From: an uncultured bacterium
Lineage (GTDB): Bacteria; Chloroflexota; UBA5177; JANWHV01
DNA: 64,000 nt
NCBI GenBank assembly: GCA_963729625.1
Contig: CAVSOU010000007.1
Coordinates: 192,001 to 256,000, forward strand
Direction of reading: 5' to 3'
In this document: positions 52,675 to 55,062 of the stretch, piece after piece
Numbering within the stretch: position 1 is the first letter of the stretch
Layout of the letters: the number at the start of each line of letters is the position of its first letter
Translations under genes and position numbers: made by a program
The notes under the pieces: generated by a model
Seen by the model: only the letters and a program-made list of their open reading frames with translations
Databases searched by the model: none
What the model was told of the DNA's origin: nothing

Positions 52675-52704
52675 TTGACTGTCGACTCCGGCTAACCCTA
52701 TGAT
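52675..52704 (+). promoter_or_regulatory. Sigma70-type promoter for the ANTAR regulator (possibly also glnA)
   Basis: TTGACT-N18-TATGAT, then AGGAGGT SD. Confidence 0.6.
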
Positions 52705-52727
52705 TCTGTGTAAGAAAGGAGGTGAGT

Positions 52728-53318
52728 ATGCCCAACTCGGCAACGCGAATCGTGATCGCGGACGACGAGCCGCTTATCCGAATTGACTTGCGCGAGAACC
52801 TGGAAGGCCTTGGCTACGAGGTCGTGGGAGAGGCGGCGGACGGCAAACATGCCGTGGAACTTGCGCGGAAGCTTCGCCCCGACATCGTGATCATGGACAT
52901 CAAGATGCCGGAAATGAGCGGCATCGAAGCACTTCGCGTGCTCACGGAAGAGAACGTCGCCCCGGTGTTGTTGCTGACAGCGTACGGCGAAGGAGATCTT
53001 GTGCAGCAGGCGAGCGACGCTGGAGCAGTCGCGTACCTGGTCAAGCCATACCGGCAGTCGGATCTCCAGCCACATATCGAAGTTGCACTCGCACGATTTA
53101 GCGAGTTGCGAACGCTGCGGACCGAGTTGGAAGATGTTAGGGAAGCCCTGAGCGTGCGAAAGCTCGTTGAGCGGGCCAAAGGCCTGCTTATGGAAACGCA
53201 AGGCCTCAAGGAAGCAGAAGCGTTTCGGCGCATCCAGAAGCTGAGCATGGACACGCGAAAGTCCATGAAGGAAGTGGCCGAAGCCATCTTGCTTGCCCAT
53301 CAGGCAACGAAGTCCTGA
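52728..53318 (+). CDS. REC-ANTAR response regulator (PdtaR/EutV/NasT-like)
   Basis: REC IADDE / MDIKMP / YLVKP; ANTAR RKLVERAKGLLM..EAEAFRRIQKLSMD.RKSMKEVAEAI. Confidence 0.95.
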   Translation: MPNSATRIVIADDEPLIRIDLRENLEGLGYEVVGEAADGKHAVELARKLRPDIVIMDIKMPEMSGIEALRVLTEENVAPVLLLTAYGEGDLVQQASDAGAVAYLVKPYRQSDLQPHIEVALARFSELRTLRTELEDVREALSVRKLVERAKGLLMETQGLKEAEAFRRIQKLSMDTRKSMKEVAEAILLAHQATKS

Positions 53319-53425
53319 GATCCGGCGGGCCTGCCCGGCCCCCTGGCGCCGCCCGGTCCCTTGGGCTGCGACCGAACCGTCTATTTCGTGGGGCGTGCTG
53401 CCGGTGGTAGCAAGACGCCCAGATC

Positions 53426-53524
53426 CGCAGAGTCGCGCAGAGTAGCGCGCCCTCCGCCAACGCAGGCAAATCCACGACGAGCAATGTTGCCCAGTGTTTT
53501 GATTTGCGCAGTAATTGGTGGAGG
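53426..53524 (+). promoter_or_regulatory. Candidate ANTAR-target RNA leader with anti-SD helix
   Basis: Hexaloop hairpins CGCGC-AGAGTA-GCGCG, GCC-AACGCA-GGC, GC-AATGTT-GC; competing CCTCCGCCAA/TTGGTGGAGG helix. Confidence 0.65.
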
Positions 53525-53531
53525 AGACTGA

Positions 53532-54962
53532 ATGACACCCAGCGAAGTGCTGAAATACGCAGAGGATAACGGCGTACGATTCGTGGACTTCAAGTTCACT
53601 GATCTGCCGGGCACGTGGCAGCACTTTACAACCCCGCTCAGCGAGCTTGAGGTATCGACGTTTACCGAAGGCCTTGGCTTTGACGGGTCAAGCATCCGAG
53701 GTTTTCAGGAGATCAATGAGAGCGACATGCTCGTGGTCCCGGACGCCTCAACCGCCCACCTCGATCCGTTCACGGCCGTACCCACCCTGAGTCTCATCTG
53801 CGATATCGCCGATCCGCTCAACAAAGAACCGTATTCGCGCGACCCACGCTTCATCGCGAAGAAAGCCGAGGCTGTTGTCAAGAAACTCGGCTTCGCCGAC
53901 GCCGCGTACTTCGGTCCTGAAGCCGAGTTCTTCATCTTCGACGACGTGCGGTATTCAACCGCACCCGACTATTCGTTCTTCGCGGTCGATGCCGAGGAGT
54001 CTCACTGGAACTCAGCACGTGACGAAGGACCCAATCTCTCCAACAAGATTCGTCCGAAGGAAGGCTACTTCCCTGTTGCGCCACAGGACAAGCTGAATGA
54101 CGTTCGAGGCGACATGGTACTCACCATGATGGACTCGTTCGGAATCAACATCGAAACGCACCATCACGAGGTTGCGGCTGCTGGTCAGGCCGAGATCGAC
54201 ATGCGCTTCGACACGCTGCTCAAGATGGCTGACAATCTTATGACCTACAAGTACGTGGTGAAGAATGTCGCGAAACGCCACGGCAAGGTCGCCACATTCA
54301 TGCCGAAGCCGCTGTATGGCGACAACGGCTCGGGTATGCATGTGCACCAGAGCCTGTGGAAGGATGGGAAACCGCTATTCTCCGATCCCGCTGGTTACGC
54401 AGGGCTGAGCCAGATTGCGCTCCAGTACATCGGCGGACTCTTGTTGCACGCGCCGGCGATACTGGCGTTTGCCGCTCCCACCACGAACTCGTATCGCAGG
54501 CTTGTGCCGGGCTTTGAAGCACCGGTGAATCTCGTATTCTCCGCGCGGAACCGCAGCGCTGCCGTGCGCATTCCGATGTACTCCAACAATCCCAAGGCGA
54601 AGCGCATTGAGTTCCGGCCCCCGGATCCTGCCGCGAACCCATACCTCACATTTGCCGCTCTCCTGTGTGCGGGTGTCGACGGCATTCGGAAAGGTATCGA
54701 TCCGACAAAAGCGGGTTTTGGCCCGCTGGATCGGAACATCTACGAACTCTCCCCAGAGGAATACGAGGGCATCCGCTCGGTGCCAGGCAGTCTTGACGAC
54801 GCGCTCGCGGCGCTTGAGGCCGATCACGAATTCCTTCTCGTGGACGGCGTGTTTACGCAGGACGTCATCGACACCTGGGTGAACTACAAGCGGACAGCGG
54901 AAGCGGACGAAGTTCGGTTGCGGCCCACACCACACGAGTACTACCTGTACTTCGACGTCTGA
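53532..54962 (+). CDS. glnA: Type I glutamine synthetase
   Basis: [47 protein letters not shown] adenylylation-type Tyr. Confidence 0.98.
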
Positions 54963-55029: not shown

Positions 55030-55062
55030 AAATGCCCGCCGCAACTCTTGCGGCGGGCATTT
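55030..55062. terminator. Bidirectional intrinsic terminator after glnA
   Basis: Perfect 15-bp inverted repeat AAATGCCCGCCGCAA/TTGCGGCGGGCATTT between convergent genes. Confidence 0.8.

Follow-up and report, generated by a model that had tools for sequence, protein, structure and literature searches.

An ANTAR-type leader with a predicted translational switch before glnA in an uncultured Chloroflexota bacterium

Introduction

How might an RNA-binding ANTAR response regulator control the glutamine synthetase gene (glnA) that follows it, when the leader between the two carries ANTAR-like hairpins and no U-tailed terminator? The question is raised by a 64,000-nt stretch of DNA from an uncultured Chloroflexota bacterium (GTDB UBA5177; JANWHV01; assembly GCA_963729625.1, contig CAVSOU010000007.1, positions 192,001 to 256,000 of the forward strand), which as a whole we call the window and from whose first letter all positions are counted. 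ANTAR proteins are widespread and tied to nitrogen metabolism, and to our knowledge post-transcriptional control in Chloroflexota is almost unstudied. A preliminary description of the locus had proposed that the phosphorylated regulator would bind hairpins in the leader and so free the Shine-Dalgarno (SD) sequence of glnA. We find that the leader is a real, selected and clade-restricted ANTAR-type element with an SD-sequestering platform, and we lean, a little beyond an even judgement, towards a cis-acting ANTAR-target RNA of the classical P1/P2 layout in which an SD-sequestering helix replaces the terminator and bound protein would free the SD.

ANTAR targets are defined as at least two stem-loops of at least 3 bp, with 6-nt loops carrying A at position 1 and G at position 4 (A1/G4 hexaloops) and joined by a short linker (PMC8934654, PMC8164766). 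Established features of these RNAs are the A1/G4 dual hexaloop, the constraint on its linker and its role in antitermination (PMC3369931, PMC8934654), with linkers of 5-12 nt in eut (PMC3369931) and 2-25 nt in an actinobacterial survey (PMC8164766), and published searches for such RNAs tolerate one point variation (PMC8164766). In eut leaders, a folded P1 is followed by a P2 that the terminator buries (PMC8934654).

Leader architecture

Structurally, the leader fills the 213 nt between a regulator gene with receiver (REC) and ANTAR domains by Pfam and a gene for type I glutamine synthetase (GS), the arrangement that the preliminary description had read from the letters; the coordinates it gave for hairpins, helices, SD and ATG all match the sequence to the base. 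The features below include the two helices of a fold that masks the SD (OFF) and that is seen in the minimum free energy (MFE) structure.

52728..53318, + strand: REC+ANTAR response regulator, PdtaR/EutV-like, 196 amino acids (aa), by Pfam and PDB matches
53319..53531, + strand: intercistronic region and glnA leader, 213 nt, read from the sequence
53434..53449, + strand: hairpin 1 (P1-like), CGCGC-AGAGUA-GCGCG, 5 bp, folded in both predicted states
53451..53455, + strand: CCUCC anti-SD, the linker between hairpins 1 and 2; its helix reaches 53460 here
53456..53467, + strand: hairpin 2 (P2-like), GCC-AACGCA-GGC, 3 bp
53479..53492, + strand: hairpin 3, GAGC-AAUGUU-GCCC, with one A-C mismatch in this genome
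53501..53507, + strand: 3' strand of the inner OFF helix, GAUUUGC, pairing with 53466-53472 (GCAAATC) in the MFE structure
53515..53524, + strand: 3' strand of the outer OFF helix, UUGGUGGAGG, containing the glnA SD
53532..54962, + strand: glnA, type I GS, 476 aa, by Pfam and TIGR00653

The window leader thus has the stem-loops, stem lengths, 6-nt loops and short linker of an ANTAR-target RNA, with A1 and G4 in all three hexaloops (the core of hairpin 3, GC-AATGTT-GC, lies at 53481-53490). Hairpins 1 and 2 are separated by 6 nt here and by 6-9 nt in relatives, and hairpins 2 and 3 by 11-13 nt. In the outer OFF helix, CCTCCGCCAA (RNA CCUCCGCCAA, 53451-53460) pairs with TTGGTGGAGG (RNA UUGGUGGAGG, 53515-53524) over 10 bp including one G-U, and the inner OFF helix (53466-53472 with 53501-53507) adds 7 bp. 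The hairpin with the AACGCA loop has bases in common with both, as had been noted: the 5' arm of hairpin 2 lies inside the outer helix and its 3' arm inside the inner one. The glnA SD, GGAGG at 53520-53524 and 7 nt before the ATG at 53532, follows hairpin 2 by 53 nt and hairpin 3 by 28 nt and hence lies outside the dual stem-loop; the leader in this respect departs from actinobacterial repressor elements, in which the ribosome-binding site (RBS) or start codon lies within it.

A scan for a stem followed by a U-run found no terminator in the window leader or in the seven clade leaders introduced below, in agreement with the preliminary description. Hairpin 2 overlaps the SD-sequestering helix instead of the 5' arm of an intrinsic terminator, and because no terminator is overlapped we file the leader as a variant rather than a classical antiterminator. 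Rfam holds glnA leader families, such as the glutamine riboswitch families. Within 53319-53531, Rfam gave no match at E <= 10, and six related loci gave none at gathering score. For a leader peptide, the leader offers only TTG-start frames without an SD. Four public sequencing runs, one of them a metatranscriptome searched as contigs, contained no read or contig across 53352-53492.

Predicted masking of the SD

Thermodynamically, the unconstrained MFE structure forms the OFF helix in both a 121-nt and a 242-nt fold, the same helix that the preliminary description had drawn as burying the SD. The shorter fold has a free energy of −40.6 kcal/mol (z = −2.0; 6 of 200 shuffles fold as well), and the longer one is unremarkable (z = −0.86). 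By partition function, the probability of CCUCC:GGAGG pairing is 0.997 here and 0.97-1.00 across the seven clade leaders, with an SD unpaired probability of at most 0.012 in every one. The value here, 0.001, falls at the 1.5th percentile of 400 controls sampled from the genome's 597 long open reading frames (ORFs) with a GGAGG SD; 4.5% of these controls are masked as well (unpaired at most 0.012), and their median is 0.37. These folds span hairpin 1 to +12, the choice of span being material in that a −110 window misses the anti-SD of the metagenome contig M112 and yields 0.25 for the related genome G001. The SD is accordingly predicted to be masked in the free RNA of all seven leaders.

The anti-SD:SD duplex runs to 7-11 bp and −13 to −20 kcal/mol (−18.8 here). 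It is lengthened on its inner side in leaders of the type of the window's genome (G000) and on its outer side in those of the G003 type, and the comparison suggests that helix strength is maintained beyond the CCUCC pentamer; the sequence of the inner helix differs among relatives. In the MFE structures of the free RNA, relatives included, hairpin 1 is formed and hairpin 2 is not. Forcing hairpin 2 to form costs 2.3-9.7 kcal/mol over the seven leaders, and in five of them lowers the probability of anti-SD:SD pairing to 0.00-0.35; in the window leader the cost is 9.7 kcal/mol and the probability drops to 0.04. The constrained folding that the preliminary description had called for therefore gives the predicted loss of masking in these five leaders and not in the other two, to which we return below.

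Conservation in the clade

Evolutionarily, the other four species of the genus (G001-G004) keep the order regulator-glnA, as do the metagenome contigs L112 and L113 (G, L and M numbers denote other genomes, loci and metagenome contigs), which with the window genome makes seven leaders from one genus-level clade. Alignment of these leaders holds only between hairpin 1 and the start codon. Within that core, the stems of hairpins 1, 2 and 3, the CCUCC and the SD are invariant in all seven, and what varies is loop positions 2, 3, 5 and 6, the linkers and the flanks, as well as everything upstream of hairpin 1. All stem positions of hairpins 1 and 2 are paired in every leader. Hairpin 1 has four invariant stem pairs, with G4 in 7/7 and A1 in 4/7 of its loops, and hairpin 3 keeps both A1 and G4 throughout. 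Pooled over the seven leaders, G4 is present in 21/21 loops and A1 in 17/21, the rest having G at position 1, so the conservation of loops and anti-SD that had been set as a check is observed, with A1 the less strict of the two loop positions.

Identity to G000 is 0.67-0.78 in the core, compared with 0.33-0.50 at the 4-fold synonymous sites in both flanking genes. These sites are near saturation and the seven sequences nearly independent at neutral positions, and by this sequence comparison the core is under selection. The hexaloops by themselves are less telling: a scan of both strands of the genome (2 x 5.41 Mb) yielded 696 dual A1/G4 hexaloops, or about 0.014 expected per 213 nt, and because of this chance expectation the leader in a single genome would be only suggestive. 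It is the conservation in seven relatives with saturated neutral sites that makes it non-random.

Co-occurrence with the ANTAR gene

The orthologous regulator was found at 186 loci, in 13 of which a GS gene comes next on the same strand. Seven of the 13 are the clade leaders, and the other six have a different GS type of 444 aa (L018, from the unpublished genome G055, among them). Dual A1/G4 hexaloops lie within 400 nt downstream of the regulator at 6 of 180 orthologous-regulator loci, all of this clade; the seventh clade leader, that of G001, misses the dual rule only through one loop that starts with G. Conversely, no dual hexaloop occurred in the leaders of 15 glnA orthologues that lack a neighboring ANTAR gene (their SD unpaired probabilities range from 0.09 to 0.93), and neither of the two nearest outgroups has such hairpins upstream of glnA. 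The hexaloop element co-occurs strictly with an adjacent ANTAR gene. In 16 genomes of the same class outside the genus (including the unpublished G018), the regulator search returned nothing beyond a receiver-domain match.

Several of the more distant loci have leaders of other kinds. The outgroup glnA genes L212 and L213 (G024 and G036; 68% identity) have AT-rich leaders without hexaloops that have in common conserved blocks such as TTGTGCA..ATGCATAA and GTACACTATA.AGTGTGATA, possibly a DNA operator. In L007 (2082-2234) and L009 (1019-1239), from more distant Chloroflexota, the ANTAR gene is followed by a strong U-tailed terminator and then by the 444-aa GS gene, and the 5' arm of the terminator can form the A1/G4 hexaloop hairpin GGC-AAAGGC-GCC; this may be a classical antiterminator version. 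We did not count these two loci as evidence of ANTAR antitermination, the upstream hairpin having a loop of 5 or 8 nt. In L038 the terminator is a plain one. At L013, L016 and L018, only some 20-45 nt separate the ANTAR gene from the 444-aa GS gene; these loci resemble simple operons in which a leader would not fit.

A proposed mechanism

The leader's architecture suggests control of translation rather than of termination. How the switch would work we model by analogy with antitermination, from which binding by the regulator, its dependence on phosphorylation and the sign of the effect (activation) are all carried over. In the free RNA, hairpin 1 would be folded, the CCUCC and the 5' arm of hairpin 2 would pair with the SD region of glnA, and the 3' arm of hairpin 2 would be taken up by the inner helix, leaving glnA translation masked (OFF). 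Once phosphorylated, possibly by the single GAF-GAF-HisKA_2 kinase of this genome, the regulator would dimerize and, during transcription, bind the A1/G4 hexaloops of hairpin 1 and then of hairpin 2. The bound dimer would keep hairpin 2 closed and cover the 6-nt CCUCC linker, so that the SD, emerging about 65 nt later, would be unpaired and glnA translated (ON). That the dimer covers the CCUCC is plausible because the pentamer falls in the linker of 6-9 nt that joins hairpins 1 and 2, and such cover would probably be needed for unmasking as well.

Evidence against the switch and alternative explanations

A number of results weigh against this switch. The comparison comprises only seven sequences from one genus-level clade; hairpin 2 is short, at 3-4 bp; and position 1 is G in 4 of the 21 loops. 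Ten of the 15 base pairs tested for covariation never vary and one is compensatory, this one lying in the outer extension of hairpin 3 (GC to AU in 2/7), and the observed covariation score is reached by 15 of 500 shuffles. The covariation analysis that had been envisaged is hence uninformative where the accompanying alignment is positive: covariation is silent on the structures because the stems never vary, and the CCUCC:GGAGG pairs cannot covary because the ribosome fixes the SD. In the absence of covariation, the structures stand on conservation and thermodynamics.

The folding models likewise complicate the picture. With hairpin 2 forced, masking still stands at 0.93 in G003 and 0.96 in M113, and the RNAalifold consensus holds the CCUCC:GGAGG helix and hairpin 2 together; for these two reasons hairpin 2 alone is insufficient to free the SD. 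In these models, hairpin 2 competes only with the extension of the helix and not with its 5-bp core, and the two are not strictly exclusive. Blocking the linker as well still leaves the SD with a predicted unpaired probability of just 0.20-0.80 (hairpin 1 was wrongly assigned in the constraint runs of G001 and G004, whose values with all three hairpins imposed or with the linker blocked are unreliable). Finally, a whole-genome search with the model R1 for a second site returned only the leader itself (78.8 bits), leaving binding without the corroboration of a regulon; the next matches (24.9 bits, E = 0.3; 22.5 bits, E = 0.8) resemble ordinary coding DNA.

Three other explanations deserve consideration. 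The structured leader might tune glnA translation without the ANTAR protein, constitutively or in response to a small RNA, a metabolite or temperature, and its likeness to ANTAR hexaloops would then be coincidental. The lack of covariation, the loops that start with G and the sheer number of short GC hairpins (22,924 single ones at a genomic GC content of 60%) all speak for such a leader, but it would not account for G4 in every loop and A1 in most of them when the other loop positions vary, for an element that is found only beside the ANTAR gene, or for the listing of the same gene order with ANTAR RNA matches in Firmicutes (Ramesh 2012 Table S2), and we regard it as unlikely. We see somewhat less prospect that the protein binds and that its main output is transcriptional or on RNA stability (through a Rho-dependent or non-canonical terminator, or processing), with SD masking secondary. 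Antitermination is the output of all well-studied ANTAR systems, terminator prediction is unreliable at high GC (PMC8164766) and an untranslated 5' end of glnA would invite Rho; against this, none of the seven leaders has a stem followed by a U-run, and the conserved part is a perfect SD complement whose position does not change, a pattern pointing to the ribosome site and not to RNA polymerase.

The least probable of the three, in our view, is that the ANTAR protein binds the hexaloops and represses glnA, either by binding to hairpins 2 and 3 inside the loop that CCUCC:GGAGG closes and so stabilizing this closed form, or by hindering the ribosome in another way, much as in actinobacterial ANTAR translational repression. 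This explanation draws on the RNAalifold consensus, which nests both hairpins within the CCUCC:GGAGG helix, and on a hairpin 2-3 linker (11-13 nt) inside the published ranges, and it has in its favor, and to the detriment of the unmasking switch, that repression is the only ANTAR translational mode published as far as the accounts in PMC8164766 and PMC12591593 extend. With over 97% masking of the SD predicted for the protein-free RNA, however, there is little left to repress; the published cases hold the RBS inside the dual stem-loop, whereas here 53 nt separate it from hairpin 2 on its upstream side; and hairpin 2 is unformed in the free-RNA MFE structure, with masking weakened in 5/7 leaders when it is forced.

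Regulator gene and transcription unit

Three further features complete the locus.

52675..52704, + strand: sigma-70-like promoter candidate, TTGACT-18-TATGAT, 10/12 consensus matches
53391..53420, + strand: upstream stem-loop of the leader, with a GGU triloop apex in this genome, from the MFE structure
55034..55058, + strand: GC-rich hairpin GCCCGCCGC-AACUCUU-GCGGCGGGC, followed by AUUUCCU, read from the sequence

The regulator matches Response_reg (1.2e-28, residues 8-117) and ANTAR (1.2e-21) in Pfam, the latter (PF03861) at full length (1-54) with 76.7 bits against a cut-off of 27.3, and it is the sole ANTAR match in the 5.4-Mb assembly, which is 87% complete. Its nearest solved relatives, with both of which it aligns over its full length, are PDB 1S8N (Rv1626/PdtaR; 1.2e-55) and 6WSH (EutV; 8.7e-41). 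Among 19 orthologues, columns D13, D57, T84 and K106 are invariant or nearly so; from general knowledge of REC domains we take them to be the acidic pocket, the phospho-acceptor Asp, the Thr and the Lys. The genome's single HisKA_2-type kinase has the domain order GAF-GAF-HisKA_2-HATPase_c, reminiscent of PdtaS, and is a candidate partner of the regulator; it lies outside the window, about 80 kb upstream of the regulator (G000:C7:164156-164359; ORF L207:232-2121).

The regulator gene has its own SD (GGAGG, 52718-52722, 5 nt before the ATG). The promoter candidate, proposed from its consensus match, is the only such site upstream of regulator and glnA, and a consensus scan of the 213-nt gap between the two found none there. 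Regulator and glnA probably form an operon and would be transcribed together. The glnA product matches Gln-synt_C (2.7e-130, Pfam) and TIGR00653 (640.9 bits against a cut-off of 429). Downstream of glnA, the 9-bp hairpin at 55034-55058 is likely the glnA terminator and the end of the transcription unit; it fails the U-tail rule of the terminator scan. Rfam aligned ar14 and Scr3202 here weakly and below threshold, and in both alignments this hairpin supplies the paired 3' portion. As for the upstream stem-loop, the equivalent apex in G001 and G002, in leaders read by eye, is an A1/G4 hexaloop (GCC-AAGGAA-GGC and UGCC-AAGGUC-GGUA, respectively).

Elsewhere in the genome, the leaders of the two amtB genes have no A1/G4 dual hexaloops. 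We tried the generic dual-hexaloop scan as a regulon finder and rejected it: the rule is too loose, with 43 of its 696 matches upstream of ORFs, among which no nitrogen-related set stands out from their N-termini. Two tandem ammonium-transporter genes (G000:C11:376500-381400, − strand, outside the window) each follow a small conserved ORF with a hydrophobic start, and the two small ORFs share a near-identical motif ending ...AWVALPDRKA...; they may encode a leader peptide or a small membrane peptide. The scan also met regular repeat arrays, one with a 27-nt period and identical 5-bp hairpins (G000:C11:540076-541024), and others of units with a 480-nt period (G000:C17:327294-329753 and C11:939644-940184).

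Implications

If the proposed switch is true, protein-dependent translational activation would join antitermination and actinobacterial translational repression as an output of ANTAR proteins, and ANTAR sensors, like riboswitch aptamers, could have their terminator replaced by an SD-sequestering platform with no change of regulator or target gene. Such a swap would explain some of the many ANTAR RNA matches without terminators, a gap noted by Ramesh 2012 and by Mehta & Ramesh 2021. At about 110 nt, the leader offers a compact test case in Chloroflexota, and for annotation the lesson would be to seek a CCUCC beside hexaloops, besides seeking terminators. A full-text literature search, outside which subscription-only papers fall, found no ANTAR system coupled with an anti-SD or with translational activation. 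That this is the first ANTAR translational ON switch, in which a co-transcribed regulator binds hexaloops flanking an anti-SD linker and unmasks the glnA SD, strikes us as an evenly balanced proposition.

Comparison with known systems

A study of mycobacterial ANTAR RNAs reportedly appeared in J Mol Biol in 2020 (preprint bioRxiv 10.1101/660928). The regulatory link from ANTAR to glnA is already known for Firmicutes and is not itself new. Table S2 of Ramesh 2012 places ANTAR RNAs before glutamine synthetase in many Firmicutes/Clostridia (the term appears 25 times), with several of these entries directly downstream of an ANTAR response-regulator gene, as in Ca. Desulforudis (Daud_2028), Desulfotomaculum carboxydivorans and Thermincola potens; the Chloroflexota genera that we searched for in the supplements are not listed. 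Where it touches on translation, Ramesh 2012 (PMC3369931) raises such control only as a possibility, and its main text takes as best candidates the matches with an overlapping terminator. With this table and with translational repression published (PMC8164766), the novelty of the locus is narrower than the preliminary description had implied. The Firmicutes loci show the gene order seen in the window, and the regulatory link proposed for them is the same; the element of the window, for its part, has no terminator.

Compared with EutV and the eut leaders of Enterococcus faecalis (Ramesh 2012, PMC3369931; Walshe 2022, PMC8934654), the window locus is alike in its REC+ANTAR regulator, its A1/G4 hexaloops and its linker, and in a P1 that is always folded and a P2 that is buried in a competing helix. 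The competing helix here sequesters the SD and has no U-tail, the linker is itself the anti-SD, and there are three to four hexaloops before glnA as opposed to two before eut. GnfR of the GnfK/GnfR system in Geobacter sulfurreducens (Ueki & Lovley 2010, PMC2995071) is likewise a REC+ANTAR protein devoted to nitrogen-assimilation genes; GnfR acts on terminators before nifH, glnK, amtB and others (PMC2995071), whereas the amtB leaders here have no such hairpins.

The closest protein relative is the mycobacterial and actinobacterial PdtaR (Rv1626), for which control is exerted at translation initiation via the RBS. Actinobacterial ANTAR control of translation is described as repressive, the motif itself containing the RBS (PMC8164766; PMC12591593): in the PdtaR RNAs, the dual stem-loop encloses the RBS or AUG, and protein binding is repressive (PMC8164766), whereas in the window leader the RBS lies 53 nt downstream, is predicted to be masked by a remote anti-SD, and would be activated by binding.

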